Source: Anaerolineae bacterium (lineage in GTDB: Bacteria; Chloroflexota; Anaerolineae; B4-G1; DUEL01). Taken from it: a DNA stretch of 64,000 bases. A program made the translations under genes and the position numbers. Positions 21,981 through 62,443 of the stretch are shown here, piece by piece; position 1 is the stretch's first letter; every line of letters begins with the position of its first letter. The DNA lies in NCBI GenBank assembly GCA_036172315.1, contig JASFBC010000093.1:27108-91107 (forward strand), in the 5' to 3' direction. A model generated the notes under the pieces. That model was not told where the DNA came from, did not search any database, and was given only the letters and a program-made list of their open reading frames with translations.

Positions 21981-22055
21981 CGGGGCGTGGCGCAGTTTGG
22001 CTAGCGCGCTACAATGGGGTTGTAGAGGCCGACGGTTCAAATCCGTCCGCCCCGA
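21981..22055 (+). tRNA. tRNA-Pro (anticodon GGG)
   Basis: Manual cloverleaf: acceptor CGGGGCG/CGCCCCG, D-arm GCGC, anticodon loop ATGGGGT, T-loop TTCAAAT. Preceded by TTGCCA-N16-TATAAT at 21944-21971. Confidence 0.85.
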
Positions 22056-45580: not shown

Positions 45581-48319
45581 ATGAATCAGAGAGGTCTTTC
45601 TAAACCCACTGCGGCGGGTCTGGCGGGGGTCCTGCTGCTCCTGCTCTGTTTCCTGGCCCTGGGGCCGCCGACCGCTGCCAGCCCCCGGCCCCTGGCCGCT
45701 CAGAGCGCCACCGCTGGCATTACCCTCACCAAGTCCGCCCCGCCCCTCCTCTATCAGAATTGGCCCGACCCCATCCGTATCCCTTACACGCTCACCCTTC
45801 AGAATCCCCAGAACCGCGCCGTCGCCGCTGGAGCCACCGTTACCGATGATCTCCCGCCCGGTGGCACACTGGAAAACGGGACCACCGGCTCTGACTGGGT
45901 CGCTGTTCTGGTGGCAGGCAGTACGGCTGTAACCTATACATCCGGGCGCACCCTCTCGGATACCCTGTCCCTGGTCGGGACCTACAACGTCTCCTTTACC
46001 CCGCCCCTGCGGGACCGCACTCCCATCGTTAATGCCGCCTACTGTTTCAGCGGGACGGTGGACGGGACGCCGCGCGCCTTCTGCGAGACCGCGCCGGTCA
46101 CCACCCTCATCCGGGCGCCGGACTTCGGCCTGGCGGTGAGCGCGACCGCACCGGTCTGCGCGGGCGGGCGGGTCACCTACACCCTCGCCGTCACCAACCC
46201 CGGCGGCGTCTCCACCCGCGTCCCCTTCACCCTGACCGGCGGAATGCCTCCCCCGCTGACGGTCGTTTCGGAGACGGTCTCCGATGGCGGCATCTGGGTC
46301 TCCCCGACGGTCACCTGGACCATCCCGACGGTCCTTTCCGCCTCTGGCGGCAATGCGGTGACCCGTACCTTCGCCGCCACCGTCGCGCCGGGCACGCCTA
46401 CCGGCACCCTCCTGACCACGACCTACCGCTTCACCAGCCCGGAGGTCCTGCCCAACGTCCCCCTCTGGGAGCACGGCCTCGCGGTCGTCCGCACCACCGC
46501 CGCCTTTACCCACACCGCGCCGGTCTGCCATGGCCGCCTGGTCGGCTTCTATAATCTCAGCCAGAACGCGACGGCCTATCAGTGGAACTTCGGCGACGGG
46601 TCACCCGTCGTCACCGAGACCAACCCGACGCACCTCTACGCCGGCCCCGGCACCTACACCGTCGTCCTGACCGCCACCGGTATCTGCGGCACCGACGTGA
46701 TCACAGGCCCGGTGACGGTCTACCCGCTTCCCTCGCCGAACCTCCTCATTGTCCCCAGCCCGACGCGGGCAGGCGTCTCCACCGGTTTCTGGGACATTGG
46801 CAGCGGCGGGCAGGAGTGGCTCTGGGATTTCGGAGACGGCTTCACCGCCCATACGGCCGTCCCCTCCACCACTCACGTCTATACCCGCACGGGCGGCGTG
46901 GTGGCCAGCGTGACCGCTATCGCCGCGACCGGCTGTACGAGCACATCCTTCCGCGCGCTGACGGTGGAGCCGGGCCCGCCCTGTTCGGTGGCGCTGACGG
47001 CCCCGCTGATGGCGCCGGTCAGCACCTCTGTGGAGGTCCAGGCGGCCGTCGCCGATCGCTTCGGGAATCCGGTGCAGAATGGGACGGTGGTCACCTTCGC
47101 GGCCGGTCCTCCGGCGACGGTGGCCCCGGTCACCGGCACGACCCGGGGCGGCGAGGCCCGGACGTGGGTCTCCTCCACCGTTGCCGGAACGGTGACCGTG
47201 ACGGGCACCGCCGACGGCGCCTCCGGCACCGCCACCATCCGGTTCGTCACCGTCGGGCCGGTCTATCTGCCTCTGGTGATGCGGTCGTTCCCGCCCGTGC
47301 CCTTCTGCGCGCCCCAGCGGGTCGCCACGCTGGACGCCGGGCCGTACCCCTACGGGGTGGCGATAGACCCGGCGGGCCGTCGGGCTTTCATCGCCCATGA
47401 CCAGGGCGTTCGGGTGATAGACACCGTCCACCACACCGTTATCACCGACATCCGTTCCGCGCCCGCCGGCTTCGGCATCGCCTACGACCCGGAGCGCAAC
47501 CGCATCTGGGTGGCGACGCGGGACACCACCCCAGGGCGCGTGCGGGTGCTGGACGGGAGCACATACGCGCTGCTGGCGACGCTTCCGGCGGGCAACGGCG
47601 TGCATTCCGTCGCCTACAATCCGAACACCGACCGCGTTTACGTCAGCAACTTCGGCAGCGGGACGGTGGGGGTCTATGACGCCGCCACCCTCGCGCCGAT
47701 CACCACGCTGACCGGTTTCGGCGAGCCCGCGCATACGGCCGTCAACACCGCCACCAACAAAATCTACGTGGCGGACCACGGGACCTTCAAGGGGGTGGTG
47801 GTCATTGACGGCGCCACCCACGCCTGGCGCTACATCCAGTCCACCAATCCGGCGCTGGTGCTGCTGGATGCTTACGGCGTGGCGGTGGATGCGCGGCGCA
47901 ACCGTATCTACGCCACCGGCATCTCCCAGGGCCGCATCGCGCTGATAGACGGGGCAACGGATACGATTGTGGGGGCGATGGACGTGAAGCGGGGCGACGG
48001 CTCCCGGGTGCCGCTGCGGGTCATCGCCGTCAACCCCGACATCGGCGCCTACGGCCACCTGTGGACGGTCACTTCCGAAGAGGACGGGGGGCTGAACCAG
48101 GTGCTGCTCATCCCGGTCTGGCCGATGGGGACGCCGACGCCGGTGCCGCTGGACCTGCCATCGTACCCGCTGGAGGGGGTCGCGCTGGACCCGACGACGA
48201 ACCGGGTCTGGGTGACCAGTGTCCGGAGCGGGCAGGTGACAGTGGTGCAGGACGGGGAGCCCCTCTGCACGACGCCGTTCTCGGCGGAGCGGATGTTCCG
48301 CATCCAGCGGTTGCCGTAA
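45581..48319 (+). CDS. Large secreted multidomain surface protein (DUF11 repeats, PKD domains, Big-like Ig domain, C-terminal YVTN beta-propeller)
   Basis: Signal peptide; PKD motifs (WNFGDGSPV...YTVVLTAT; WDFGDGFTA...); YVTN-type repeats in the C-terminal third. Confidence 0.8.
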   Translation: MNQRGLSKPTAAGLAGVLLLLLCFLALGPPTAASPRPLAAQSATAGITLTKSAPPLLYQNWPDPIRIPYTLTLQNPQNRAVAAGATVTDDLPPGGTLENGTTGSDWVAVLVAGSTAVTYTSGRTLSDTLSLVGTYNVSFTPPLRDRTPIVNAAYCFSGTVDGTPRAFCETAPVTTLIRAPDFGLAVSATAPVCAGGRVTYTLAVTNPGGVSTRVPFTLTGGMPPPLTVVSETVSDGGIWVSPTVTWTIPTVLSASGGNAVTRTFAATVAPGTPTGTLLTTTYRFTSPEVLPNVPLWEHGLAVVRTTAAFTHTAPVCHGRLVGFYNLSQNATAYQWNFGDGSPVVTETNPTHLYAGPGTYTVVLTATGICGTDVITGPVTVYPLPSPNLLIVPSPTRAGVSTGFWDIGSGGQEWLWDFGDGFTAHTAVPSTTHVYTRTGGVVASVTAIAATGCTSTSFRALTVEPGPPCSVALTAPLMAPVSTSVEVQAAVADRFGNPVQNGTVVTFAAGPPATVAPVTGTTRGGEARTWVSSTVAGTVTVTGTADGASGTATIRFVTVGPVYLPLVMRSFPPVPFCAPQRVATLDAGPYPYGVAIDPAGRRAFIAHDQGVRVIDTVHHTVITDIRSAPAGFGIAYDPERNRIWVATRDTTPGRVRVLDGSTYALLATLPAGNGVHSVAYNPNTDRVYVSNFGSGTVGVYDAATLAPITTLTGFGEPAHTAVNTATNKIYVADHGTFKGVVVIDGATHAWRYIQSTNPALVLLDAYGVAVDARRNRIYATGISQGRIALIDGATDTIVGAMDVKRGDGSRVPLRVIAVNPDIGAYGHLWTVTSEEDGGLNQVLLIPVWPMGTPTPVPLDLPSYPLEGVALDPTTNRVWVTSVRSGQVTVVQDGEPLCTTPFSAERMFRIQRLP

Positions 48320-48372: not shown

Positions 48373-50094
48373 CTACTCCGGCAGTTCGCACCCCTCCATC
48401 CAGACCGCCGCCAGGTTCTCCAGGTCGGGCGGGGTGAGGTTGGCCCACGGGTCCACGATGACATCCAGCACTCCCGGTTTGCCCGAGGCGACGGCCCGCT
48501 CCAGCGCGGGCAGTATTTCCTTCGGGTCCTCCACCCGTTCCCCCCAGCAGCCGCAGGCGCGCGCAATTTCGTCGTAGCGGATGTCGGTGAAGTCCACGCC
48601 GATGTAGCGCGCGTCGTAGTTGGCCATCTGGGAGGCCTTGATCATCCCCCACTGCCGGTCGTTGGCGACGATGACGACGACCGGGACCTTCAGCCGCGCG
48701 GCCGTCTCCAGTTCCTGTATGTTCAGGCCGAAGGCGCCATCGCCGCAGATGGCGTAGACGGGCCGGTCCGGCGCGGCCAGTTTGGCCCCGATGGCGTAGG
48801 GGAGCCCCGTCCCCAGATGGCCGGAATCCGCCGCCCAGAGGAAGGACCGGGGCGCGTAGACCCGGTTCAGGTAGTGGGCCCAGACGGTCGTGTTCCCGCC
48901 GTCCACGACGGTGATGGCCTGGCGCGGGAAGAAGGCGCGCACGTCCCGCATCAGCCGGAGGGGATGGATGGGCTTCCCGTCCGATTCGGCCTGTTTCTCA
49001 AAGTTGGCCAGCCAGGCCTGCTGGGCGGCGTGGTAAGCCTCCATCTGGGGCCGCTCCGGAACCGGGGGGGTCAGCCGCCGGACGGCCTCTATCAGCGCGC
49101 GCAGGGTGGCCTTCGCGTCCCCTACCAGCGCCAGGTCCACGGGGCGGTTGAGGGCGATGTTCTCCGGTTCCACGTCAATCTGGATGAACTTCTGGACGTC
49201 CGGCTCGCCCCACATCGGCGGCTGTCCCCAGAAGTCCACATCCCCCAGCCGCCCGCCGACCAGGAGCACCACGTCCGCCTCGTTCTGCGCGCCCAGCGCG
49301 CCGTAGCCGCCGGGGATGAGGCAGAGGGGGTGATCCTCCGGCAGGACGCCGCTGGCTCCCATAGAGGTGGTGACGGGCGCGGAGAGGTACTCCGCCAGTT
49401 CCCGCACCTCGTCCCAGGCGCCGGAGCGGAGGACGCCGCCGCCGGGGTGGATGAGGGGCCGCTCCGCCGCTACCAGCATTCGGGCGGCTTCTTCTATCAG
49501 ATGGGCTGGCGCGACCGGGCGCTCCAGGGCCCGGTACCGCCGGGGCGGCCAGGGGTGGTAGGTGAGTTCCGCCTCCTCCACCCGCGAGAGCAGTACGTCC
49601 ACGTGCAGGTCCAGGTAGACGGGGCCGGGGCGGCCGGAGAGGGCGATCCGGAAGGCCCGCTGGACCAGTTCAGGGATACGCTTCCAGTGGGTGATGCGGG
49701 CACGCCACTTGGTGATAGGGGCCAGGAGGTCCACCTGGTTGAGGGACTGCATGGAGCCCCGTTCGGGGTAACTCTTCCAGGTCTGGTTCTGGGCGCCCAG
49801 GACGATGAGGGGGATGGAGTCGGCCCAGGCGGCGTAGACGCCGGGGACCAGGTCGGCCACCCCCGGCCCGACGGTGCCCATACAGACGCCCGGCTCCCCG
49901 CTGACGCGGGCGTAGGCGTCGGCCATGTGGGCGGCGGCCTGTTCGTGGCGGGTCATCACGAACTCCATCCCCGCCGACGGCCCCAGCCGCCGGATGGCAT
50001 CCAGGACGGGGCAGAGTTGGCCGCCCGGGATGCCAAAGACGTAACGGACGTTCTCCTGAATCAGGCATTGGACGAAGAGTTCGGCTCCGATCAT
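48373..50094 (-). CDS. Thiamine-pyrophosphate enzyme, acetolactate-synthase-like
   Basis: TPP motifs (GIPGGQLCPVLDA...; GDGAFGLNIQELETA); ATG 50094 has a GGAGG RBS. The ORF-track 5' extension is discarded. Confidence 0.85.
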   Translation of the reverse strand: MIGAELFVQCLIQENVRYVFGIPGGQLCPVLDAIRRLGPSAGMEFVMTRHEQAAAHMADAYARVSGEPGVCMGTVGPGVADLVPGVYAAWADSIPLIVLGAQNQTWKSYPERGSMQSLNQVDLLAPITKWRARITHWKRIPELVQRAFRIALSGRPGPVYLDLHVDVLLSRVEEAELTYHPWPPRRYRALERPVAPAHLIEEAARMLVAAERPLIHPGGGVLRSGAWDEVRELAEYLSAPVTTSMGASGVLPEDHPLCLIPGGYGALGAQNEADVVLLVGGRLGDVDFWGQPPMWGEPDVQKFIQIDVEPENIALNRPVDLALVGDAKATLRALIEAVRRLTPPVPERPQMEAYHAAQQAWLANFEKQAESDGKPIHPLRLMRDVRAFFPRQAITVVDGGNTTVWAHYLNRVYAPRSFLWAADSGHLGTGLPYAIGAKLAAPDRPVYAICGDGAFGLNIQELETAARLKVPVVVIVANDRQWGMIKASQMANYDARYIGVDFTDIRYDEIARACGCWGERVEDPKEILPALERAVASGKPGVLDVIVDPWANLTPPDLENLAAVWMEGCELPE

Positions 50095-50369
50095 AGAAGG
50101 CCTCCATTTGATTATTGACGACGGACTATAGACCATTGACATGGACTGGGGGCTACGGACCCCTCCATAAACCGCTCGCCCTTCCACAGGTTAGCGGGCA
50201 GCCCGCGATGGCCTGCGAAGTCCTCACCCCTCCCCGCCGCCTTCGGCGGCAGCGGCAAAGCCCCTGGGGTAGGGTGAGGATACCCCCACCAGCCCTATGT
50301 CCCAACTCGCGTCTGAACCTCAGAATCTCATCTTGACAATTGGAATTCTTTCGCTATAATAATAGCACA

Positions 50370-50647: not shown

Positions 50648-52011
50648 TCACCAGGCCGCTGTTTTGATGCCCCTTCGCTTCGCCTCGGGGCTCTGCCGCA
50701 CCCTCATCCCCGAAAACCCGAAGGAAGGCAGGCAGCATCCTCCCAGGTACGCTTCCAGATACCGATAATCCGGCGTCAGTTCTCCCCGATAGACGATGAC
50801 CGCCCGCTTGATCTCCGGCGGCAGGTCCAGTTGCTCAAAGGGGACGGTGTAATCGGCACGGGTGATGGCGGGGACGAATTCCCGGAGGACGGCGCTGAAA
50901 TCCACCGACGCGTCCCGGGGCATCTCACTGGGCAGGATGTCCACCGCCATCACCACCCCCTCCCCAGCCCAGCCGTCAGTCGTCTGCCCGGTGCGGGGAT
51001 GGTAGACGTAGATGGGGTTGCCCGGGTCGGTGGCGCGGGCGGTACATTCTATGGCGCCTTCTATGTCGCAACTGATGTCGCCGATGATCCGCAGGCGGGG
51101 CCGGCGCCCCGAACAGTTCCCGCAGGTACGCCTTCGTTACCAGGCGGGGGTAGCGGGCCTCCCAGTAGATGCCGTTGACCAGAACGGTCAGATACGGCAC
51201 CCAGGCCGCAAACCGGGAGCGATACTTTTCCGGATGCCGATAGTAGTCCTGGAGGTCAAACCGGTCCTCCGGGGAGACTGGCTCCACCATGTGCTCCTCC
51301 CGGAACACCACCTTGTAGAGAATGTGGTTGTCCGGTCCCTCCGCGAAGAGGGCAGGCAGGTCCTCCGGCGTCCGTTCCTGGAAGGGGAGCAGGTCAAAGA
51401 TTTCCTGGGCGCCCCGGGAGACGTTGCCGTAGCCCGCGAAGCCCACCACCAGCGGTGCCAGGATAGGGGGGAGGCCCTGGGAGCGGATGCGCTCGCCCAC
51501 CTCCCGTACTGCCCGGCGGGCCGCTTCCCCGTCGGGGTAGTGGATGGCCCGGTCTATGCCGACAAAGGGGTTGGGGATGCCCTCCCACTCCAGCCGTCGG
51601 CCCAGGGCCCAAAGGGTCTCCAGCATGCCGGCCCACCCGGCATGGCGGCCGATGAGGCGGCGGCCCTTCTCGTCCGTCACCCTTTCATAGCAGGACGCAG
51701 CCCAGTTCCATCAATCGGCGCAGCATGGGCATATTGCTGGCCCTTGATGACGTGGGCGAAGAAAATATAGGTCTTGCCCGGCAGGAGTTGGGCCGGTGGA
51801 ATCCCCTTGATGCCGAAGATGACGTCGCAGCCGGAGAGGTCTTCCTGGACGGTGACCCCGGCGGCCCGGTATTCCTGGTCGGAGAAGACCCGAATCTCCG
51901 ACGGCTGGACGACGACCGCCAGGCCGTGTTGTTCCTGGAGGGCACGAGCGTCCTGGGGGGTGATGGGGACGCGCCGCTCCCAGACCGACTTGTCCTCGCG
52001 GCGGATGCCAA
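50648..52011 (-). pseudogene. LOR/SDH (saccharopine-dehydrogenase-like) gene disrupted by multiple frameshifts
   Basis: Homologous peptide segments lie in at least four different frames: VGIRREDKSVWERRVPITP...FFAHVIKGQ / NMPMLRRLMELGCVLL / YERVTDEKGRRLIGRHAG...RYPRLVTKAYLRELFG / RLRIIGDISCDIEGAIECT...MAVDILPSEMPRDAS. Confidence 0.6.
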
Positions 52012-52030
52012 CGCATGGGGGGCATCTTTC

Positions 52031-52498
52031 CTATTCCACTTTCCAGTACGGGCGCTCCGCCTCCCAGCGGGTGCGGAACTCCTCGGGAGCCGTTGTCAGC
52101 AGGGCCTCCCCTTCAGCGGTGACGGTTCCATCGGGGAGGCGAATCTGCCCGGCCACTTTAGCGCCAGCCCCGCCGATCTGCTCCACCCACCCCACTGCGA
52201 GCAAGGGCGTGCCCGTCGGAGTGGGACGGCGATAGCGGACCGTGAGGCGAAGGGTTGCCATGAAGGTCTCATGGGTGGTATGCAGCATGACCGCCCGCCC
52301 GGAGACCTCGTCCAGAATAGCGGCGATCACTCCGCCGTGGGCGATGCCCGGATAGCCCTGGTAGGTCTCCGGGATGGTGAATTCGGCCCGTACGACCTGG
52401 TCCTCCGGGTCCTCGTAGAACTTCAGTTTCAGGCCGCAGGGGTTTTCCCGGCCGCAGACGAAGCACATGCGGGAGGTAGGTTGGGGACGCATAGACAC
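52031..52498 (-). CDS. Hotdog-fold acyl-CoA thioesterase (PaaI/YbgC-like)
   Basis: The CFVCGRENPCGL motif and overall length are characteristic. Confidence 0.75.
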   Translation of the reverse strand: MSMRPQPTSRMCFVCGRENPCGLKLKFYEDPEDQVVRAEFTIPETYQGYPGIAHGGVIAAILDEVSGRAVMLHTTHETFMATLRLTVRYRRPTPTGTPLLAVGWVEQIGGAGAKVAGQIRLPDGTVTAEGEALLTTAPEEFRTRWEAERPYWKVE

Positions 52499-52602: not shown

Positions 52603-53850
52603 TCAGGATTCGGGGAGGGGCAACAGGATGTGGACGGTTGTTCCAGGCAGGCGCACCTCATCCCGCCCCTCGCTTTCTATCCAGATTCTCCCTTTGTGGG
52701 CCTCAATGATTCCCCGGGCCAGGCTGAGGCCCAGGCCCAGTCCGCCCCCCTTGAAGGCCGTCTTGCTGGAATGGTGGAGTAAGGTCTCCTCCACCACGTA
52801 GAACCGCTCAAAGATGCGCTCCCGCTCCGCTGGATCAATCCCGATACCGGTATCCTGGACGCTCAGATGGATGGTGTGGTCCACCACCCGTCCGGTGATG
52901 CGGATCGTGCCACCGTCGGGGGTATATTTGACCGCGTTGCTGATCACATGCCAGAGGGCCTGGAAAAGCCGCTGGGCATCTGCCATAATTATCGGCAGAG
53001 CCTCCAGTCCTTCAAACTCAAAGGTCAACTGTCGCTCCGGGCCCAGGTTGCGGATGTTGCGCACCACATTCTGGATGAGGGAATTCAGGGGAACGGGGCC
53101 GATGCTCAGTTCCAGTTTGTTGGCCTCAATGAGGAAGACGTTCAGGATGTCGTCCACCACCTGATTCAGGCGGCGGGTGGCCTGCATGACCTGATGGAGC
53201 AGATGACGGGGACTCCCTTCCTCATCCGGGCCGCCAGGGATGTCGGGGATGGAGAGCAGGATCTGGCTGTAGCCATAGATGGCGGTGAGAGGGGTGCGCA
53301 GTTCGTGGCCGGCCAGGATGATGAAATCGGTTTTCATCTTATCCAGCCGTTGGAGTTCGGCGTGGGCCTTCTCCAGTTCGCGGATTTTCCCTTCCAGCCG
53401 CTCCACCAGGCGGCGGCTGTACTCTACCAGATAGTCCGCTTTCTCCTGAGGGGACTCTATCCGTTCCCGCAAGCCGCCCAGGAACGCCTTCACCTGCTGG
53501 GGGAAACGGTCCACATCTATCGGTTTGGGGATGTATCCATCGCATCCCGCGATGAGCGCCCGCTCCCGGTCCCCGCGCAGGGTGGCAGCGGTCACGGCGA
53601 CGATGGGGACGTCTTTCAGTTCTTCCAGCGCGCGCAGCCGGGTGGTGACCTCATAGCCGTCCAGCCCGCTGATGTTGATGTCCATCAGGATGAGGTCGGG
53701 CCGCAGTTGCCGGGCGGCTTCCAGGGCCGCGATCCCATCGGTGACGATGCGCACTTCAAAGCCTTCGGCCTCCAGCACCCGCTGCACCAGTCGGGCGCTG
53801 GAAGGGTCGTCCTCTACATACAGGATGCAGGCGCGTGCGTTTCGGTGCAT
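52603..53850 (-). CDS. Hybrid response-regulator/histidine kinase (REC-HisKA-HATPase)
   Basis: REC motifs (VEDDP; LILMDINISGLDG; VTAAT), H-box LAGHELRTPLTAIYGY, and G-boxes GGGLGLGLSLARG. Confidence 0.88.
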   Translation of the reverse strand: MHRNARACILYVEDDPSSARLVQRVLEAEGFEVRIVTDGIAALEAARQLRPDLILMDINISGLDGYEVTTRLRALEELKDVPIVAVTAATLRGDRERALIAGCDGYIPKPIDVDRFPQQVKAFLGGLRERIESPQEKADYLVEYSRRLVERLEGKIRELEKAHAELQRLDKMKTDFIILAGHELRTPLTAIYGYSQILLSIPDIPGGPDEEGSPRHLLHQVMQATRRLNQVVDDILNVFLIEANKLELSIGPVPLNSLIQNVVRNIRNLGPERQLTFEFEGLEALPIIMADAQRLFQALWHVISNAVKYTPDGGTIRITGRVVDHTIHLSVQDTGIGIDPAERERIFERFYVVEETLLHHSSKTAFKGGGLGLGLSLARGIIEAHKGRIWIESEGRDEVRLPGTTVHILLPLPES

Positions 53851-53872
53851 GTTCCCCTTCCTCCAAATTTTC

Positions 53873-54045
53873 GTAACTATTCAGCCCGATGGAGATCGCC
53901 CTCTTGGCGCCGATTGGAAATCGGCCTCCCCTGGGCGCTTTCGCGCCGGGCGTCAACCTCCGTTGACGCCCTGGGAGGACGGCGCAGGCCGTCCAGAGGC
54001 CGCAGGCCCAGGGAGGCGGACTTTCCGTCAGCGTTGAATAGTTAC
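53873..54045. repeat. MITE-like intergenic repeat, full-length copy C with terminal inverted repeats
   Basis: GTAACTATTCAGC...GCGTTGAATAGTTAC termini. The interior is rich in palindromes (GTCAACCTCCGTTGAC, GGCGCTTTCGCGCC, GGACGGCGCAGGCCGTCC). Confidence 0.8.
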
Positions 54046-55709
54046 AAATTTTCCATCGCGCCGCTGATTTCGCGGAGCAGTTCCTCGTCGGTGAAGGCGC
54101 CCTTCTGAAGCAGGGCCTGGATGTGGCCGCTGAGCCGGGCCCGCTCATTGGGCGTGAGTTCTTTGGCCGTGACGACAATGACCGGAATATCCCGCAATTC
54201 CTCGTCGGCGTTGAGCACCTCCAGCACCCCGAAGCCGTCCACCTCCGGCATCATCAGGTCCAGCAGGATGAGGTCGGGGCGCTCCTGGCGGATGAGTTCC
54301 AGTCCCTCCCGGCCGTTCTCGGCCTCCAGAATCTGGTAGGGGCCCCGGACCTGGAGGATGCGCCGGAGGAGGCGGCGGGCGCCCGGGTCGTCCTCCAGGA
54401 TGGCCACGCGACGGACGTCCCGACCCAGTGACTCCAGCGACCCCAGCAGTCCCTCCTCCGGGGCCGGCGCGCGGGCAGGCGCCTCCACCGTCTGCACCCA
54501 GTCTTCTCCCAGCAGGTGTTTCTCCACCGGGAAGGTGTGGCCGGAGCAGTTGACGACGATCACCTCGTCCCGCCGGATGACCCCTTTGCTGAGCAGTTGG
54601 AAAAGGCCGGCGAAAGCAATGCCCGCCGCCGGCTCCATGGAGATACCCTCCAGTTTCGCCAGAACATGGATGGCGCGGAAGGCCTTTTCGTCGCTGACCA
54701 TTTCAAAGGCGCCGCCATGCTCCCGGATCACCCGGGCCAGGAAGGTATAAGCCGGGCCGGGGTCACCGGTCGCGACGGTGATAATGCGGGTGCGGGGATT
54801 GAGGACCGGCTCCGCTTTCTCCAGCCCCTTTTTGAAGGAGTGGACCATCGGGGCGCACCCTTCGGCCTGGACGCAGGCCAGGCGGGGCATGCGGTCTATC
54901 AGGCCCATGCGCAACAGTTCCTCAAACCCCTTCCAGACTCCGACCGGCCCCAGCCCGCCGCTGACGGCCTGGATATACCAGTCCGGCGCGCGCCAGGGGG
55001 TGGTGGGGCCGGGGCCCAGGTGCGCGGCCAGTTGTTCGGCGATCTCAAAGGCTACCGTCTTCATGCTCTCCCGCGCGGCGATGGAGCGGATGCCCCGGTC
55101 CAGATAGAGCCCCCGCCGCTTCGCAAATTCCGCCGCCACCTGCTTGGTCTGGTCGTAGGTGCCGGTGACCTTGACGACTTTGGCGCCGTAGATGGCGACC
55201 TCGCGCATCTTCTCCGCCGGGACCAGGCTGGTGAGGAAGGTCCAGATTTTAATGCCCGCCAGGGCGGAGTAGGCGGCGTAGGAGATGGCGACATTGCCGG
55301 TGGAAGCCAGAACCGCCTCAGTGACTCCCAGTTCTTTCATCACGGAAACCGCCAGGGCGGCCTGCCGGTCCTTGAAGGAGCCGGTCGGCCCCTGCCGTTC
55401 GTCCTTGATGTAGAGATGGGAGCATCCCAGCATCATCCCCAGGTTGACGGCCCGCAGGAGAGGGGTGCCTCCCTCGCCCATGCTGAGCCGGTGGGCATCA
55501 TTCCGGAGGGGAAGGAGTTCCCGGTAGCGCCACATCGTCTGGGGACGGCGGGGCATTTCCCGCTGCCAGATACGGGCCACGCTCGGGTAGTCATAGATAA
55601 CGTCCAGCCAGTCCCCATCGCACTGCGGGCAGCGCTCCAGGGGACGGGTGAACGGCTCATGGTAGCCACAGCGAGTGCATTGCAGGTACGGGTACTGGTG
55701 AGTATCCAT
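54042..55709 (-). CDS. Threonine-synthase-like PLP enzyme (N-terminal zinc ribbon) fused to a C-terminal response-regulator receiver domain
   Basis: Zn ribbon CTRCG...CPQCDG. PLP-lysine motif GPTGSFKDRQ. C-terminal ~125 aa is a complete REC (ILEDDP; LILLDLMMPEVDG; VVTAK). The ORF is continuous with no internal start; RBS GGGGAGAGAG lies before ATG 55709. Confidence 0.8.
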   Translation of the reverse strand: MDTHQYPYLQCTRCGYHEPFTRPLERCPQCDGDWLDVIYDYPSVARIWQREMPRRPQTMWRYRELLPLRNDAHRLSMGEGGTPLLRAVNLGMMLGCSHLYIKDERQGPTGSFKDRQAALAVSVMKELGVTEAVLASTGNVAISYAAYSALAGIKIWTFLTSLVPAEKMREVAIYGAKVVKVTGTYDQTKQVAAEFAKRRGLYLDRGIRSIAARESMKTVAFEIAEQLAAHLGPGPTTPWRAPDWYIQAVSGGLGPVGVWKGFEELLRMGLIDRMPRLACVQAEGCAPMVHSFKKGLEKAEPVLNPRTRIITVATGDPGPAYTFLARVIREHGGAFEMVSDEKAFRAIHVLAKLEGISMEPAAGIAFAGLFQLLSKGVIRRDEVIVVNCSGHTFPVEKHLLGEDWVQTVEAPARAPAPEEGLLGSLESLGRDVRRVAILEDDPGARRLLRRILQVRGPYQILEAENGREGLELIRQERPDLILLDLMMPEVDGFGVLEVLNADEELRDIPVIVVTAKELTPNERARLSGHIQALLQKGAFTDEELLREISGAMENL

Positions 55710-55813
55710 CTCTCTCCCCTGGGGGCGGGGCGGATTCTCATTCTGCGAAGCCCCTTCGGGGGTTGGATAGCCCGAAGGGTTTTGCCGCTTGAGCCCGCCG
55801 CTTGAGTGGTTCA

Positions 55814-58800
55814 TTATCCCTCCCCAGACCCTTCGGGCCACCCCCTCCTCTTTTCAGATTGAGGGTCTGGAGAGGGAGGGGAAAGGGGGGTGAGGGAGTC
55901 CGGTTTTCGGACAACTTCCAGGAGCGGCAGCCAGACGGTGCAGCGGGTGCCCTTCCCTACCTCGCTTTCCACCGCAATCCGCCCACCGTGACGGTCCAGC
56001 ATCTCTTTGACAATGGAGAGGCCCAGGCCGGTGCCAGGAATCTGCATCTGGCGCGGCCGCTCCCCCCGGAAGAAGCGGTCAAAAATATAGGGCAGTTCAT
56101 CTTTGGGAATGCCGATGCCGGTATCGGCGACGGTGACCGTTGCCCAGCGATGTCCCTCTCGTTCCCCCTCTCCGGTGCTCACCTCCACCCGTCCGCCTGA
56201 AGGGGTGTGCTGAATGGCGTTGCGGATCAGGTTGTTCAGCACCATGCGGAGCGCGTCGGGGTCGGCACGGGCAACCGGTTCCTCCTCCGCCAGGTGGCAC
56301 TCCAGCACCAGCCCCTGGGCCAGCGCCAGGGGCCGCTGCGCGTCCACCACCTCTGCTACCAGAGCGTTGAGCCCCACCGGGCCGAACTGCATCCGGGTAG
56401 CCCCGGAATCCAGCCGGGAAATTTCCAGCACATCCTCCACCAGGCGGGCCTGCCACTCCACCTCCCGCTCCATAATCTCCAGATATTCGGGGAGCAGTTC
56501 GGGCGTCCTCCGCAGGAGGTGGAGATAGGTCTTGATGGTCGTAAGGGGGGTGCGCAATTCGTGGGAGATATTGGAGATGAACCGGACGCGCAGCCGCTCC
56601 AGCGTCTTGTACTGGGTTACATCATGGAGGACAACGACGACCGCCGTTTCCCCCTCAATTCCTTCAATCGGGGACGCCCGGACTTCCAGGTCCAGCCCCG
56701 GCAATTCCACCACCTCCTCGGGCCGCTCCCGGGCTTTTCGGGCTACCCGCCGAACCGCTTCCTCCAGCCGCTGGGCGTCCTCGGGGGAGAGGTCCCGGGT
56801 CAGCCATCCCTGGACGACCGGGTTGGCCTGGAGAATCTCCCCCTGAGAGTCGGCCAGGATGATGCCGTCGCCGGTGCTGCGCAGGACGGCCTCCAATCGG
56901 GCGTACTGGGCCGCCAGTTGCGCCGTCCGCTCCCGCACCTGCTCCTCCAGCGTCCCGGCATAGCGGCGCAGTTCGGTGTAGAGGTGGGCGTTCTCCAGCG
57001 CGATGGCGACATGGTCGGCGAACGCTCTCAGCCGGGCCGCGTCGGCAGAGGTGAACTGGTGGGGGCGGGTGCCGTCCACGTTCAGGAAGCCCACGGTGAT
57101 CCCCCGGACAACGATCGGCGCGGCCACATAGGAGCGAATCCAATCCAGCCCCTCCAGCCGGACCCAGAGGGGGTCGGCATGGGTATCGGGGATAAGCAGC
57201 GGATCACCGGTCCGGGCCATTCTCTGAAGGGTAGGGATCTCCATCACCGGAAACCCCAGAGAGGCAACCCGTTCTTCTGCTCCGAACTGTTCGTATCCCC
57301 GTCCGCCTGCAATGCGGGCGATGCCGTCTTCTATCAACATTACATTGAAGGCATCGCCAGGCACCACCCGCGCCACCTGCTCCAGAATGTGCTCCAGCAC
57401 CTGGGTCGGGTCCAGGGTGCGGGTGATCACAGCGGCCGCCTCCGCCAGCGCCTGGGCCAGTTCCCGCTGCTCCCGTTCGGCCCGGTAGAGCCGCTCGTTC
57501 TCTATCGCCCTGGCCAGCGCGTCGGCCACCTGCTGGAGGAGAGGAACCTGCCCGTGGCGGAAGTTCCGCTCCCGGGTGCTGACGACGTGGAGGGCGCCGA
57601 TGACCTGCATGCCCACCCGCAGCGGCAGGCTCACATAGGAGCGAAAGCCCGCCTTGTAGAGAGCCTGAATAGCCGCGTACTCCTTCTCGGCGCTCATATC
57701 GGGGCAAAAACGGGGCCGGCCCTCCAGCAGGTCGTCCCAGACCGGGGTGGTGGAGAGAGGGAGGAGGGTGCCTTCCTCCAGGATGGGGAAGGGGGTCTCC
57801 AGGACAGCGATGCGGTAATGGGTCCTATCTTCCAGAAGCGCCACGGCAACCCGGTCGCAGCCGGTGAGGATACACAGGCCATGGACCAGGACGCGGAAGG
57901 CCTGGCGGACCTCCAGGGTGTTCAGCGCGGTGGCGATGAGCGCCAGGATCTCCTCTTCCTGCGCCCGACGGTGCTCCTCCTCATAGAGGCGGGCGTTCTC
58001 CAGCGCTACCGCCACCTGGTCCGCCAGCGCGCGCAGGAACTCCATGTCCACTCCCCGGAACGCGTCCACCTGCGGGCTCTGGAGGTCCAGGTTGCCCAGG
58101 ACCCGGTCGCCCCGCAGGAGTGGGATCACCAGTTCGGAGCGGGTAGTGGGGATCAGCGGGAAATAGTCCGGATCCTGCCGGACGTCGGGGACGTAGCAGG
58201 TCATACGGGTGCGGTAGGCGCGAGAATGGATGCCCTCCGTCAGGCTGAGGGGCTGGGTGAGGGCCCGCTCCCGCTCCTGGGGGGAATAACCGCGCAGGGA
58301 GCGGCGCTCAAAGACCCCCCGCTCCGGGTCGGGCACCAGGACCGAGCCGTGGGTGGCGCCGGTGGCCCGTACCGCCTCTTCGGTCAGCCGGTCCAGGATG
58401 GCCTCCGTATCCAGGGTGGAGTTGACGACCTGGCCGATACGGTAGAGGGCCTCCTGACGCTCCCGGGCGGCCCGCTCCTGTTCATAGAGGCGAGCGTTCT
58501 CTATGACCGCGGCCGCGTCCGCGGCCAGCGTCTGGCAGAGGCGGATTTCGGCCTCGGCGAACGCTCGCTCCTGGCGGCTCTCGCAAAGAGCGACGAAGCC
58601 GATAGCGCGATCGCGCACCACCAGGGGGACAACCAGTTGGGATTTCCAGCCGTACCGCTCCACCTCCGCCCGGTCGCCCGCATTCAGGTAGCCGCCGGCC
58701 TGGAGAACCAGAGGCCGCCGCTCCCGGAGCGCACGAACCACTCTCGGATGGAGGCTCAGGTCAAAGGTCTGGCCTATATCGGTGAGGGCCGCTGCCCGTT

Positions 58801-61800
58801 CTTTTTCCGATGCCTGGGGGCCAAACCACCCCTTCACTTCGGTAGCGGTATGGGTCGCCTCATCCCAGAGGCTGATGTAGACGCTGGTGACATCCAGCGC
58901 CTGGCCGATTTGCTGGGCCAGCGCTTCCAGCGCGGCGTCCAGTTCCCGCTGGGAGGAAATGGTGACGGCGGCCTGATAAAGGAAGGCCATCTCTTCGGCT
59001 CGCCGCTGCTGGGCCTGATAGAGTTGGGCGTTCGTGATGGCGGCGGCGATGTGGCCCGCCAGAGTCTCCATCACGGCCACGTCCAGCGGGGTAAAGGCAC
59101 CCCGGCGTGCGCTCTGGAGAGTGAGCACACCCACCAGCCGCCCGTGATACTTCAGGGGGACATCCAGTTCGGCGCGAGTCCCGGTGAGATACGGAGCGAT
59201 GGAGCGGGGCTCCTGGCTCACGTCGTTGGCCAGGAGCGTCTTGCCGGTCCGGGCTACCCAGCCGATCATCCCCTCGCCGACCTTCTGGCGGAAGCCCGGA
59301 GGGGTGAGGCCGGCCCAGATTCCCGCCCCGGCGACGAACTCCAGTTCCCCCGCCGCCTCGTCCAGAAGCATCAGGCCAACGTAGTCGTAGCCGAAAGCCC
59401 GGACGATGCCCTCCACCGCCTCCTGCCAGACCGCCTCCGGCTCCAGGATGGCGGCCAGCCGTTCCCCCAGTTCGGCTACGGCGGCCATGCGGCGGGCCCG
59501 CTCCCGTTCGTCCTCATAGAGGCGGGCGCCGGCCAGAGCCCCGGCGATGATCACTCCGGCGGCCTCCGCCAGGTGAGTGTGGTCGGGGGTGAAGGCGGCC
59601 CTCTGCGCGCTTCCCAGGCTCATCACGCCGACCAGTTCCTCCCCAAAGCGGAGAGGAATGCTGAGAGCGGAGCGGACATGCTCGTCCACCCCCTGAAATA
59701 CCAGCCAGCGGTCGTCCTGAAGCACGTCATCTACCACGGCGGTCCGGCGGTGGAGGGCGACCCAGCCGGCCAGCCCTTTCCCGACGGTCAGTTGCAGGCG
59801 ACGGTCCAGGCTTTCCGCTTCCCTATCGCCGGGGCCGGTGGCAGCGATGAGCCGCAGGCGGGGGGTGCCCGGTTCAGCCACAAAGACGACTCCCTGCTGG
59901 GCTCCGGTCATCCCGCAGAGGGCTTCCAGGGCCTCCTGGGCGATAGCCCGCGCGTCCAGGGTTCCGGCCAGCCGCTGCCCCAGGCGGTGGAGGAAATCCA
60001 GTTGCTCCCGCTCCTGCCGGAGGGTCTCGTAGAGGCGGGCGTTGGAGAGGGCGATGGCGGCCTGGGCCGCGAAGAGGTCCAGCAGGTCGGCGTCCTCCTG
60101 GGAGAAGGTGCGGGGCGGGTCGGCCAGGACGATGAGGACGCCCAGTATCTCCTCTCCCCGCCGCACCGGCACGCCGATGACCGCTGTCCAGGGGTAACCG
60201 GCGTACTGCGCCGGACGGTCCTCCTGCTGCGAATAGTTATCCACCCAGAAGGGGCGGCCCGTCTTCCAGACCCGGCGGGTAATCACGCCCTCGGAGGGCC
60301 GCAAGCGGGTTCCGACGGGGGGTTGATTGGGGCCGACGGAGACGACCCACTCCAGAGCATCCTCCTCCGGCCGGTAGAGGTAGAGGCCCCCGCCGCTTCC
60401 GCCCACCAGGTCCACCGCCCGCCGGACGATGGAGGATAGGAGGGCATCCAGGTCCAGCCGTGCAAAGAGTTCTAATCCGACCTGGCGGAGGGCTTCTATC
60501 TGCTCGGCCCGGCGGCGGACGGCCTCCTCGGCCCGCACCCGATCGGTGAGGTCCACGATGGAGCACAGGATGGCCGGGCGGCCCCGGTAGTCCACGCGGG
60601 TGCCCAGCACCTCGCAGGGGAAACGGGAGCCGTCCTTGCGCAATCCCTGGATGGTGTAGTGGACGCTCATCACTTCGCCATTCGGCCGTTTCCGGATGTT
60701 CTCCGCTACCCGCTCCCGATCTTCGGGGGCCACCACATCCAGAGGCCCCAGCCGGTCTATCAGTTCTTCCGGCTCATAGCCGAACATATGGGCGCCGGCG
60801 GGGTTCACATACCGGAGCAGGCCGTCCTGGATCAGGTAGACGCCGGTCAGTGCGTGTTCGGCCAGGAGGCGGAAGCGCTCCTCGCTCTCCCGCCGCGCCT
60901 CCTCCTGCTCCAGGGAATGGAAGGCGAAGGCCAGGTCTTCAGCGATCTCGCTCAGGAGTTTTTGCTCTTCGGGGGACGGGGTGAGATCGGGGGATAGCGC
61001 GATGCCGAGGAAGCCGTAAGTCCGCCCGCCGTGGGCCATGCGGACGACCATTGCGGCGGCGCCCCGGTAGGTCAGGCGGACGGGGCAATCCGGACAGGCC
61101 TCCGGTTCGGGGATGATGAGCGGTTCGGACATTGTCAGGGCCTGGCGGGCGCAGGTGGGGAGTCGGCCTTCGCCCCAGGCCTTCAGCAGCGCGGGGAAGC
61201 CCGTCCCGATGGGCCCGGCGGCGGCCCCGGAGAGAGCCCGGCCGGCCTCGTCGGTGAGAACGGCCCAGGCTCCGAGGTAGTCGCGCGTGCGAACCAGTTC
61301 GTCGCAGGCGATCCGGATAAGGCACTCCCTATCTTTTTCTCGGGTAGTGGCCTGATTGATGTTGCGGATGGCCCGCAGGACGGCGTTGAGGCGGGTCAGT
61401 TCCTCTTCCCTTTGTCCCAGTGCATCCAGCGTCTCGTTGAAAGCCCGGGCCAGGTCGGCCAGTTCGTCCCGGCCGCGCAGGGTAACCCGGCCTCCGGGCT
61501 CGCCCCTGGCGCCGATGGCCCGGACCTGCGCGGCCAGCGCGGCCAGCCGGACCAGGATGTCCCGGTCCAGGAGCAGGAGGACCGCCAGGGTAACCAGGAG
61601 GCCGAGGGCGACCACTGTGCCGATGAGGTAACGGAAAGCCAGCAGGCCGCGCGCGTAAGTTTCCCGGGGGCCCTCGGTCCGCAGGACCAGCGCCGGGCGG
61701 CCGTAGAGGTCCGTCAGCAGCCCATATCCGGCGATGCGAGCCCCGTCCAGCGGTTGGGCCCGGACGGGGGTCTGGGGGGAGAGGTGGGGGTAGATGACTC

Positions 61801-62443
61801 GCAGGTCCTCAGGCCACTCCTCGGAGCGGTCAGCCCGGTGGGCGGTGACGGAGAGGTCCAGGCGCTGGCTCATCCAGTCCAGGAGGTCGGCGTTCAGATA
61901 GCGGCCGAAGACGAGAACACCGCGCGCAGGGCCCCGGTCCTCGGAGGTCAGGATGGGGCGCGCAGTCACCAGGAGGACGCCCTCGGGCAGCAGGAGCAGG
62001 CCGCGCAGCCCCTCTTCGGGGACGCGAGTCAGGACCGGCAGCGCGTCGTAAATCTCCCGGGGGACCGGTGCCTCCTCTGCGGCCTTCAGGTCGTAGGCCC
62101 GGGCCAGGACCACCCGGCCGGAGGCGTGGACGAAGAGCATCAGGTTGAGGTGGGTGTTCAGGAAAGTCTCATCGGTGATGTTGGAGCGGATGTACGCGGG
62201 ATTGACGTCCTCTATGAAGGCGTACGTATCGTCCCAGGAGGCCCAGTCGTGGTTGAGGGTGTCTATAGGCCGCAGTTCGTCCTCCAGGAAAGCCCGGACG
62301 CGGTGGGCATCGTGCTCTGTATCCCGGAGTTCGGCCTCCGCAAAGGCACGCAGGAGGGTCCGGGAGAAGAGCAGGCCCAGCAGCGCCACCAGGAAGACAA
62401 TGGTCAGACCTACAGTCAGTAGAGTACGGGTTCGGAGGGACAT
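55814..62443 (-). CDS. Giant sensor histidine kinase (TM-CHASE4-TM-HAMP, multiple GAF/PAS, HisKA-HATPase), 2209 aa
   Basis: N-terminal TM plus CHASE4-like periplasmic block; repeated GAF/PAS segments. H-box ISHELRTPLTTI; G2 GTGLGLSIVKEM. Confidence 0.85.
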   Translation of the reverse strand: MSLRTRTLLTVGLTIVFLVALLGLLFSRTLLRAFAEAELRDTEHDAHRVRAFLEDELRPIDTLNHDWASWDDTYAFIEDVNPAYIRSNITDETFLNTHLNLMLFVHASGRVVLARAYDLKAAEEAPVPREIYDALPVLTRVPEEGLRGLLLLPEGVLLVTARPILTSEDRGPARGVLVFGRYLNADLLDWMSQRLDLSVTAHRADRSEEWPEDLRVIYPHLSPQTPVRAQPLDGARIAGYGLLTDLYGRPALVLRTEGPRETYARGLLAFRYLIGTVVALGLLVTLAVLLLLDRDILVRLAALAAQVRAIGARGEPGGRVTLRGRDELADLARAFNETLDALGQREEELTRLNAVLRAIRNINQATTREKDRECLIRIACDELVRTRDYLGAWAVLTDEAGRALSGAAAGPIGTGFPALLKAWGEGRLPTCARQALTMSEPLIIPEPEACPDCPVRLTYRGAAAMVVRMAHGGRTYGFLGIALSPDLTPSPEEQKLLSEIAEDLAFAFHSLEQEEARRESEERFRLLAEHALTGVYLIQDGLLRYVNPAGAHMFGYEPEELIDRLGPLDVVAPEDRERVAENIRKRPNGEVMSVHYTIQGLRKDGSRFPCEVLGTRVDYRGRPAILCSIVDLTDRVRAEEAVRRRAEQIEALRQVGLELFARLDLDALLSSIVRRAVDLVGGSGGGLYLYRPEEDALEWVVSVGPNQPPVGTRLRPSEGVITRRVWKTGRPFWVDNYSQQEDRPAQYAGYPWTAVIGVPVRRGEEILGVLIVLADPPRTFSQEDADLLDLFAAQAAIALSNARLYETLRQEREQLDFLHRLGQRLAGTLDARAIAQEALEALCGMTGAQQGVVFVAEPGTPRLRLIAATGPGDREAESLDRRLQLTVGKGLAGWVALHRRTAVVDDVLQDDRWLVFQGVDEHVRSALSIPLRFGEELVGVMSLGSAQRAAFTPDHTHLAEAAGVIIAGALAGARLYEDERERARRMAAVAELGERLAAILEPEAVWQEAVEGIVRAFGYDYVGLMLLDEAAGELEFVAGAGIWAGLTPPGFRQKVGEGMIGWVARTGKTLLANDVSQEPRSIAPYLTGTRAELDVPLKYHGRLVGVLTLQSARRGAFTPLDVAVMETLAGHIAAAITNAQLYQAQQRRAEEMAFLYQAAVTISSQRELDAALEALAQQIGQALDVTSVYISLWDEATHTATEVKGWFGPQASEKERAAALTDIGQTFDLSLHPRVVRALRERRPLVLQAGGYLNAGDRAEVERYGWKSQLVVPLVVRDRAIGFVALCESRQERAFAEAEIRLCQTLAADAAAVIENARLYEQERAARERQEALYRIGQVVNSTLDTEAILDRLTEEAVRATGATHGSVLVPDPERGVFERRSLRGYSPQERERALTQPLSLTEGIHSRAYRTRMTCYVPDVRQDPDYFPLIPTTRSELVIPLLRGDRVLGNLDLQSPQVDAFRGVDMEFLRALADQVAVALENARLYEEEHRRAQEEEILALIATALNTLEVRQAFRVLVHGLCILTGCDRVAVALLEDRTHYRIAVLETPFPILEEGTLLPLSTTPVWDDLLEGRPRFCPDMSAEKEYAAIQALYKAGFRSYVSLPLRVGMQVIGALHVVSTRERNFRHGQVPLLQQVADALARAIENERLYRAEREQRELAQALAEAAAVITRTLDPTQVLEHILEQVARVVPGDAFNVMLIEDGIARIAGGRGYEQFGAEERVASLGFPVMEIPTLQRMARTGDPLLIPDTHADPLWVRLEGLDWIRSYVAAPIVVRGITVGFLNVDGTRPHQFTSADAARLRAFADHVAIALENAHLYTELRRYAGTLEEQVRERTAQLAAQYARLEAVLRSTGDGIILADSQGEILQANPVVQGWLTRDLSPEDAQRLEEAVRRVARKARERPEEVVELPGLDLEVRASPIEGIEGETAVVVVLHDVTQYKTLERLRVRFISNISHELRTPLTTIKTYLHLLRRTPELLPEYLEIMEREVEWQARLVEDVLEISRLDSGATRMQFGPVGLNALVAEVVDAQRPLALAQGLVLECHLAEEEPVARADPDALRMVLNNLIRNAIQHTPSGGRVEVSTGEGEREGHRWATVTVADTGIGIPKDELPYIFDRFFRGERPRQMQIPGTGLGLSIVKEMLDRHGGRIAVESEVGKGTRCTVWLPLLEVVRKPDSLTPLSPPSPDPQSEKRRGWPEGSGEG

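Follow-up and report, generated by a model that had tools for sequence, protein, structure and literature searches.

The outputs of two-component systems are nearly always transcriptional or carried by second messengers. What, then, is a receiver domain doing at the end of a pyridoxal 5'-phosphate (PLP)-dependent enzyme? Such a protein is encoded in a 64,000-nucleotide stretch of DNA from an Anaerolineae bacterium (GenBank assembly GCA_036172315.1, contig JASFBC010000093.1, positions 27,108 to 91,107; this whole stretch is called the window below), where an N-terminal zinc ribbon, a catalytic core of the threonine synthase (ThrC) type, known in Pfam as PALP, and a C-terminal receiver (REC) domain are joined in one reading frame. 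Anaerolineae abound in sludge, in sediments and in hot springs, and they are poorly studied. The most interesting result, which is invisible from the window alone, is that the fusion gene belongs to a trio of kinase, enzyme and transporter conserved across the class, and because of this conservation the system is directly testable. Probably, an environmental signal switches the PLP enzyme directly. If true, a class-wide system with a PLP enzyme as its only obvious output would be a clean case of post-translational, signal-gated amino-acid chemistry, and it would also provide a handle on the physiology of Anaerolineae.

Is the fusion real? The original prediction, which was drawn from the letters of the window only, described an uninterrupted open reading frame (ORF) of 555 codons at 54042-55709. 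This ORF is present as described, and it lies on the minus strand, which had been left unstated: it starts with ATG at 55709, ends with a stop at 54044-54042, and contains 555 codons with no internal stop. An alternative GTG start, which would lengthen the gene to 55841, would overlap the upstream kinase gene, and the N-termini of homologues give no support to it. The parts of the gene are as follows.

54042..55709, minus strand: zinc-ribbon/PALP/REC fusion ORF, complete, 555 amino acids plus stop
55710..55719, minus strand: purine-rich, putative Shine-Dalgarno-like stretch GGGGAGAGAG, directly 5' of the ATG, as read from the sequence
55620..55679, minus strand: N-terminal C4 zinc ribbon, Cys11/Cys14/Cys27/Cys30, weak DUF7129 match
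54540..55484, minus strand: PALP (fold-type II PLP) catalytic core, residues 76-390 (Pfam)
55371-55373, minus strand: codon of the Schiff-base Lys113, in SFKDRQ
54411..54530, minus strand: interdomain linker, residues 394-433, about 40 amino acids, Pro/Ala-rich, poorly conserved
54072..54407, minus strand: C-terminal REC domain, residues 435-546 (Pfam)
54258-54260, minus strand: codon of the phospho-acceptor Asp484, in the REC domain

Could a missed stop or a frameshift in the assembly have joined two separate genes? It is to be noted that the window does hold another gene, at 50648-52030 on the minus strand, that is broken by two frame changes, being split across two reading frames with the changes near 51690 and 50990. 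By eye we take it to be saccharopine/alanine-dehydrogenase-like, with no Pfam match for the single piece of it that was scanned, and it is either a pseudogene or a sign of indel errors in the assembly. Against such an origin of the fusion, 80 independent genomes at species level encode the same unbroken architecture, alike in length and in linker, and it recurs in well over 200 protein clusters that stem from NCBI, JGI, ENA and Logan assemblies. An artefact is thus refuted by the comparative data, and its remaining chance is negligible; a missed stop or frameshift is excluded here by comparison with homologues, not by resequencing. In this protein a ThrC-like PLP enzyme is genuinely fused, in frame, to a REC domain that is expected to accept phosphate.

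Are both halves of this protein kept intact in the family? Conservation was examined in 82 distinct sequences of 54-94% identity, and every motif that had been named from the window was recovered. The four cysteines of the claimed zinc ribbon (C11, C14, C27 and C30) are invariant, apart from one sequence gapped at C11/C14, and the profile match over residues 8-34 is weak (Pfam). PALP and Response_reg are both above their Pfam cut-offs, the former with E 6.4e-61 and 206.7 bits vs 35 (PF00291) and the latter with E 1.1e-19 and 71.1 bits vs 30.2 (PF00072). The PLP lysine motif of the original prediction is GSFKDRQ at 110-116 with Lys113; SFKDRQ, STGNV and the S250-G-G-x-G-P loop for the PLP phosphate are invariant or nearly so, and the profile match, the Schiff-base lysine and the glycine-rich PLP-phosphate loop together place the core among the fold-type II PLP enzymes. 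In the REC domain, the acid pocket is ILEDD at 437-441, the phospho-acceptor is Asp484 in LILLDLMMPEVDG, and the conserved Thr and Lys are Thr514 and Lys536. All of E/D439, D440, D484, T/S514 and K536 are invariant, and with the profile above threshold the domain has the acid pocket, acceptor Asp, Thr/Ser and Lys of a REC domain; its best matches in the PDB are single-domain response regulators (RR468, CheY, DivK and Spo0F). The linker is variable, and residues 391-420 are predicted to be disordered, with a predicted local distance difference test (pLDDT) below 50 in an AlphaFold2 (AF2) model. Because the key residues are invariant while the linker varies, both halves are under purifying selection for function. 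When the AF2 model is compared with the PDB, threonine synthases are the best fold matches, followed by the cysteate synthase CapA2 and further by serine dehydratases/racemases, threonine deaminases and TrpB. In two variants of the fusion, P0121 and P0122 (708 and 715 amino acids), the PALP core is followed by two REC domains in tandem.

Which genes accompany the fusion? It had been placed between two sensor kinases, and both were found on the same strand, followed by a thioesterase gene.

55814..62443, minus strand: upstream sensor histidine kinase, 2209 amino acids, CHASE4-HAMP-PAS-8xGAF-HisKA-HATPase, ending 104 nucleotides before the fusion gene
52603..53850, minus strand: downstream REC-HisKA-HATPase hybrid kinase, 415 amino acids, starting 191 nucleotides after the fusion gene
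52031..52498, minus strand: 4HBT-family thioesterase, the next same-strand gene, at the position of EamA in most other lineages

The order in the window is tRNA-synt_1b (class I Trp/Tyr-type) synthetase, D-Tyr-tRNA deacylase, kinase, fusion, REC-kinase and 4HBT thioesterase, and a related metagenome-assembled genome (MAG), at 92% identity, has the identical gene order. The order at the thioesterase is the same in L001 and L002, and membership of the thioesterase in the system is uncertain.

To compare the loci more widely, ORFs were called in all of them and compared with the window kinases and one EamA gene; the denominators given here are loci with enough flanking sequence. A same-strand sensor kinase ends less than 500 nucleotides upstream of the fusion gene in 72/75 loci, and this conserved neighbourhood is far stronger evidence for the proposed two-component embedding than the window alone. 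The gap between kinase and fusion has a median of 30 nucleotides and ranges from -11 to 326, the two genes overlapping in some loci; in the 104-nucleotide gap of the window, no terminator-like site was seen on the coding strand. Most of the upstream kinases (61 of the 72) are hybrids with C-terminal REC domains, and those sampled are all PAS/GAF-rich, with no Hpt domain detected among them. A REC-HisKA-HATPase gene lies directly downstream, as in the window, in 23/70 loci, and a transporter of the EamA/drug-metabolite transporter (DMT) type lies directly downstream or just past the REC-kinase in 62/70. The EamA assignment is backed by Pfam, and there is a weak match to a carboxylate/amino acid/amine transporter family. 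With an adjacent same-strand kinase and receiver in an arrangement kept across species, the locus has the features of a two-component operon. None of the genes that share a strand in the conserved cluster encodes a DNA-binding regulator, and the enzyme is therefore its sole obvious output.

How far has this fusion spread? An exact-sequence database look-up of the window protein returned no record, and close homologues were used instead. A genome scan with one genome per species gave at least 581 confirmed relatives (matching stretches), from which 80 loci were kept, and a full-length fusion of 54-94% identity is encoded at 80/80 of them. In a protein search, at least 120 clusters with identities of 70-94% were obtained from Anaerolineae, Thermoflexia and Chloroflexi MAGs, each about 555 amino acids long and with both Pfam domains. 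The fusion-bearing genomes are almost all labelled Anaerolineae or Chloroflexota, and include Anaerolineales, Caldilineae, Ardenticatenaceae, Promineifilaceae, Thermanaerothrix, Longilinea, Villigracilis and Leptofilum; members from Aggregatilineales and Phototrophicales were added by a second search. One bin is labelled Lewinellaceae, and mis-binning is suspected because the layout of its locus matches that of a Ca. Villigracilis locus, L024. When proteins were clustered at 50%, six clusters were full-length fusions (P0121-P0126), two of them with two REC domains. The fusions therefore form a single old clade spanning the GTDB class Anaerolineae.

The original prediction regarded this architecture as undescribed, which holds for the literature and does not hold for the databases. 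Full-text literature searches, whose coverage left two response-regulator censuses outside, found no published description of a ThrC/PALP-REC protein, and in that sense the novelty stands. The architecture is neither rare nor unseen in databases, which hold several hundred predicted fusion proteins with both Pfam domains precomputed, under names such as 'pyridoxal-phosphate dependent enzyme' or 'threonine synthase'. Of what the original prediction had itself named as its refutation, a common annotated architecture, one half thus applies: the fusion is common, yet it has never been characterised and is unstudied rather than unseen. REC domains joined to standard metabolic enzymes are a recognised and recurring theme, and have been viewed as a way to environmental control (review, PMC5847659).

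What kind of PLP enzyme is it? Class II threonine synthases give the best sequence matches in the PDB, with identities of about 31-35%, and the claim of a threonine-synthase-like enzyme is correct as far as likeness goes, whereas profile scores and replaced motifs speak against a canonical ThrC. The score with TIGR00260 (thrC) is 152.9 against a cut-off of 167.1, and that with NF006050 is 272 against 303; on both profile score and signature motifs the protein falls outside threonine synthase proper. In a residue alignment to Thermus thermophilus ThrC, Lys61 and S84-T85-G86-N87 are kept. STGNT of four solved bacterial ThrCs is STGNV in the fusion family, NSxNPxRxEGQKT (N154-S155-x-N-P-x-R160) is replaced by D-x-G-x-R/K-S/T...E-x-MKT, and GNAGN (G-N188-A-G-N) by SGGxG, and these three replacements are invariant in the 82 sequences. 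In the structures of T. thermophilus ThrC with substrate analogues, Thr88, Asn154, Ser155, Arg160 and Asn188, which lie in these motifs, are the ligands of the phosphate of O-phosphohomoserine. The conserved R/K208 of the fusion could still bind an anionic group. The same replacements are shared by unfused zinc-ribbon proteins of 375-435 amino acids (P0131, P0135-P0137, P0139, P0147, P0160 and P0175), and the zinc-ribbon proteins P0190 and P0203 keep the canonical ThrC motifs. Since the zinc ribbon occurs in both groups, it is the active-site motifs, not the zinc ribbon, that separate them. The Prokaryotic Genome Annotation Pipeline (PGAP) gives the name threonine synthase to some of the fused relatives at greater distance, and several hundred database entries of this name can now be flagged as probably not threonine synthases. 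To call the protein an amino-acid-metabolism enzyme, as was done originally, is fair; ThrC activity is not established, and although this ThrC-like enzyme might act as a canonical threonine synthase, we do not favour that view.

The unfused members of this non-canonical PALP subclade, among them P0137, P0135 and P0160 (L086, L088, L089 and L090), lie outside threonine operons. One of them is found with a radical-SAM/SPASM enzyme, TauE and Fe-ADH, others with NeuB, a DegT aminotransferase, glycosyltransferases and methyltransferases, which hints that they modify sugars or secondary metabolites; the closest unfused members adjoin an SDF transporter and an amino-acid-binding protein (SBP_bac_3). 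Because unfused kin sit in biosynthetic clusters or by amino-acid transporters, the core of the fusion is probably a working enzyme on amino-acid-like metabolites. The closest relatives of the fused family are a few unfused proteins of 56-66% identity (P0322, P0333 and P0331, on L091, L092 and L093), and two of these three adjoin the SDF transporter and amino-acid-binding protein. Their contigs look cyanobacterial to us, with a phycobilisome-linker gene on L091 and DUF561 and DUF2301 on L092/L093, and these proteins may go back to a lateral transfer in which the REC domain was lost.

Two other ThrC-like activities were considered. The cysteate synthase model TIGR03844 gives 111.1 bits, far from its cut-off of 324.9. 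MetM, a ThrC homologue characterised from S. albulus, is a homocysteine synthase that depends on MetO thiocarboxylate and is 'often misannotated' as threonine synthase (preprint 10.1101/2024.10.14.618325). It is reported to have cyanobacterial relatives, and a ThrC of a distinct lineage is reported from Microcystis (PMC12172450); a lead to MetM was followed through the unfused P0322, which is 56% identical to the fusion and whose contig carries the phycobilisome-linker gene. The lead was set aside: the nearest relatives of P0322 are Anaerolineae fusions, no cyanobacterium-named protein, Microcystis-named ones included, is among its best 120 relatives, and the link to MetM was not established. 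A MetO-like sulfur-carrier gene was not seen among the annotated neighbours, for which no dedicated search was made.

How, then, may the system work? We read the protein as an enzymatic-output response regulator in which PLP chemistry is gated by phosphorylation of Asp484, with a probability of roughly 0.55. Its domains, its intact catalytic and acceptor residues, their conservation and the synteny are observed; phosphorylation-controlled catalysis, which the original prediction had already proposed, is inferred, and so are transfer of phosphate from the adjacent kinase and the tie to the transporter. The zinc ribbon and PALP core would form an active PLP enzyme, belonging to a non-canonical subclade of the threonine-synthase-like family, that probably carries out a beta- or gamma-replacement or an elimination on an amino-acid-like substrate. 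The PAS/GAF-rich kinase encoded directly upstream is the likely cognate phosphodonor, as the synteny at 72/75 loci suggests, and would phosphorylate Asp484. The phosphorylated REC domain, held on a flexible linker of about 40 residues, would then alter the activity of the dimeric PLP core, likely by a REC-driven rearrangement of the dimer or by release of an inhibitory contact. In most Anaerolineae the adjacent EamA/DMT transporter would move the substrate or product, and in the lineage of the window the second REC-kinase that follows instead would probably modulate the flow of phosphate. The REC domain is placed where related PALP enzymes carry ACT-like or LeuA-type allosteric domains, and its position thus has a precedent.

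Several points weigh against this reading. The conserved PLP residues would be kept equally in a PLP-based sensor, and response regulators less commonly have their REC domain at the C-terminus. The AF2 model is of moderate quality (pLDDT 73.6; predicted template modelling score, pTM, 0.66), confirming the protein at the level of fold only, and, since it came with neither interdomain contacts nor an output of predicted aligned error (PAE), it is silent on docking of the REC domain. Most of the upstream kinases are hybrids that have two REC domains and in which an Hpt domain was not detected, which obscures the route of phosphate to the fusion. There is no EamA homologue in the 64-kb window, nor in the closest relatives of its lineage, and in the L004/L005 lineage EamA is present and the kinases are absent; neither the kinase link nor the EamA link is therefore obligatory.

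Might the protein simply be the housekeeping threonine synthase, converting O-phosphohomoserine to threonine, with an acquired receiver through which the kinase tunes it? The nearest solved structures and the best family models are indeed threonine synthases, many members carry that name from PGAP and JGI, and the gene is very widespread in the class, like a core gene, with its at least 581 matching stretches. Neither the window nor 85 loci, each of about 20 kb (about 1.7 Mb), yielded a hom, thrB or second ThrC-like gene, a sample far too small to establish absence; lack of a second ThrC would suit a housekeeping role, whereas lack of hom and thrB nearby, with a sensor kinase and a DMT transporter as the conserved neighbours instead, would not. 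Scores below the curated cut-offs of TIGR00260 and NF006050, the invariant replacement of motifs shared by the four solved bacterial ThrCs and by P0190 and P0203, and the location of unfused subclade members in clusters for sugars or secondary metabolites also count against it, and we hold this explanation to be unlikely. A quite different explanation is that the PALP domain works as a PLP-based ligand sensor, like the aminotransferase-like domain of GabR/MocR regulators, in which an amino acid at the PLP site would alter how the REC domain gains or loses phosphate. Metabolic information would then be fed into a phosphorelay, or else the protein would take up phosphate as a sink or connect the large kinase with the downstream REC-kinase. 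The N-terminus is usually the input side in signalling proteins, and the REC domain here is C-terminal and most like the stand-alone regulators; an operon with two kinases, several RECs, and neither Hpt nor DNA-binding output is a typical layout of a branched phosphorelay with sinks, and conservation of the PLP residues fits sensing and catalysis alike. However, the full set of active-site motifs of the subclade is common to unfused relatives in biosynthetic clusters, the conserved adjacent EamA is easier to explain by a substrate or product needing transport, and a precedent for a PALP-fold sensor was not found, for which reasons we regard such a sensor as rather improbable.

Beyond gated catalysis, the kinase, PALP-REC protein and EamA might together form an unrecognised signalling-metabolite circuit typical of filamentous Anaerolineae, a quorum-sensing-like or cross-feeding switch, which is a tentative idea that we would not expect to be borne out. 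In such a circuit the kinase would directly switch on the PLP enzyme by aspartyl phosphorylation, the enzyme would make or destroy an amino-acid-derived small molecule, and the DMT transporter would export or import it. If so, this would be the first PLP catalysis gated by a two-component receiver.

Which known systems resemble the fusion? Response regulators with enzymatic output, such as the methylesterase CheB, the diguanylate cyclases PleD/WspR, RpfG (HD-GYP) and the phosphodiesterase PorX (PglZ), likewise have a REC domain with all phospho-acceptor residues covalently joined to an enzyme and are likewise encoded next to their sensor kinase, with phosphorylation expected to gate catalysis. 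They differ in that the fusion has as its output a PLP enzyme, of fold-type II and with amino-acid chemistry, for which we found no description, that its REC domain is C-terminal rather than N-terminal, and that no nucleotide second messenger is involved. The threonine deaminase IlvA, with its ACT-like module, and cystathionine beta-synthase, with its CBS pair, have the same fold and likewise a C-terminal regulatory module; these modules bind Ile/Val and S-adenosylmethionine (SAM), respectively, whereas the fusion would have a kinase-wired phosphorylation switch. Outside the window, two zinc-ribbon ThrC-like proteins of about 611-620 amino acids, P0184 and P0211 (candidate division NC10 and an unclassified bacterium), end in a LeuA_dimer domain. 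In them the same core is joined to a different regulatory domain, a fusion that is likewise unstudied, and they are a precedent for its C-terminal regulation, the effector in their case being probably Leu. Class II threonine synthases (T. thermophilus 1UIM/1V7C, A. aeolicus 2ZSJ and M. tuberculosis 2D1F) are 31-35% identical over the whole core and have the same fold (Foldseek E about 1e-26, TM about 0.8 on the target), with the SFKDR Lys and STGN in common; the fusion differs in its extra zinc ribbon and REC domain and in the replacement of STGNT, NSxNPxR and GNAGN. Cysteate synthase (TIGR03844; CapA2, PDB 9K3C) and MetM are likewise ThrC-like cores that do other replacement reactions, the fusion being far below the TIGR03844 cut-off. 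As analogies, in CheV (CheW-REC) a C-terminal REC domain regulates the functional domain at the N-terminus, and the Legionella Lqs and Vibrio Cqs clusters combine the gene of a PLP-dependent autoinducer synthase, which makes a small-molecule signal, with those of a sensor kinase and a response regulator. LqsA and CqsA differ in being of fold-type I and unfused to REC, and no evidence here makes the product of the fusion a signal.

A few further observations concern the surroundings of the system. In many Anaerolineales loci (L018-L063 and others), a conserved divergent gene pair lies on the opposite strand about 1 kb downstream of the fusion gene, past EamA, encoding a REC protein of about 245-257 amino acids and a REC-containing kinase of about 525 amino acids; with this pair, the module may have a further two-component system linked to it. 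The 191-nucleotide spacer between the fusion and the REC-kinase in the window (53851-54041, minus strand) has a folding energy of -94 kcal/mol (z -3.67) and holds a perfect hairpin, GGCGUCAAC-GGAG-GUUGACGCC. The structure is unconserved in the closest related loci, and for this reason the spacer was rejected as a part of the system. The genes flanking the system are ordinary. Apart from four tRNA genes, for Pro, Gly, Lys and Met at 21981, 33525, 43181 and 50370, the window has no Rfam matches. A TPP-dependent (thiamine pyrophosphate) acetolactate-synthase-like enzyme is encoded at 48373-50187 on the minus strand, and a surface protein of 912 amino acids with PKD, Big_1 and NHL repeats at 45581-48319 on the plus strand.

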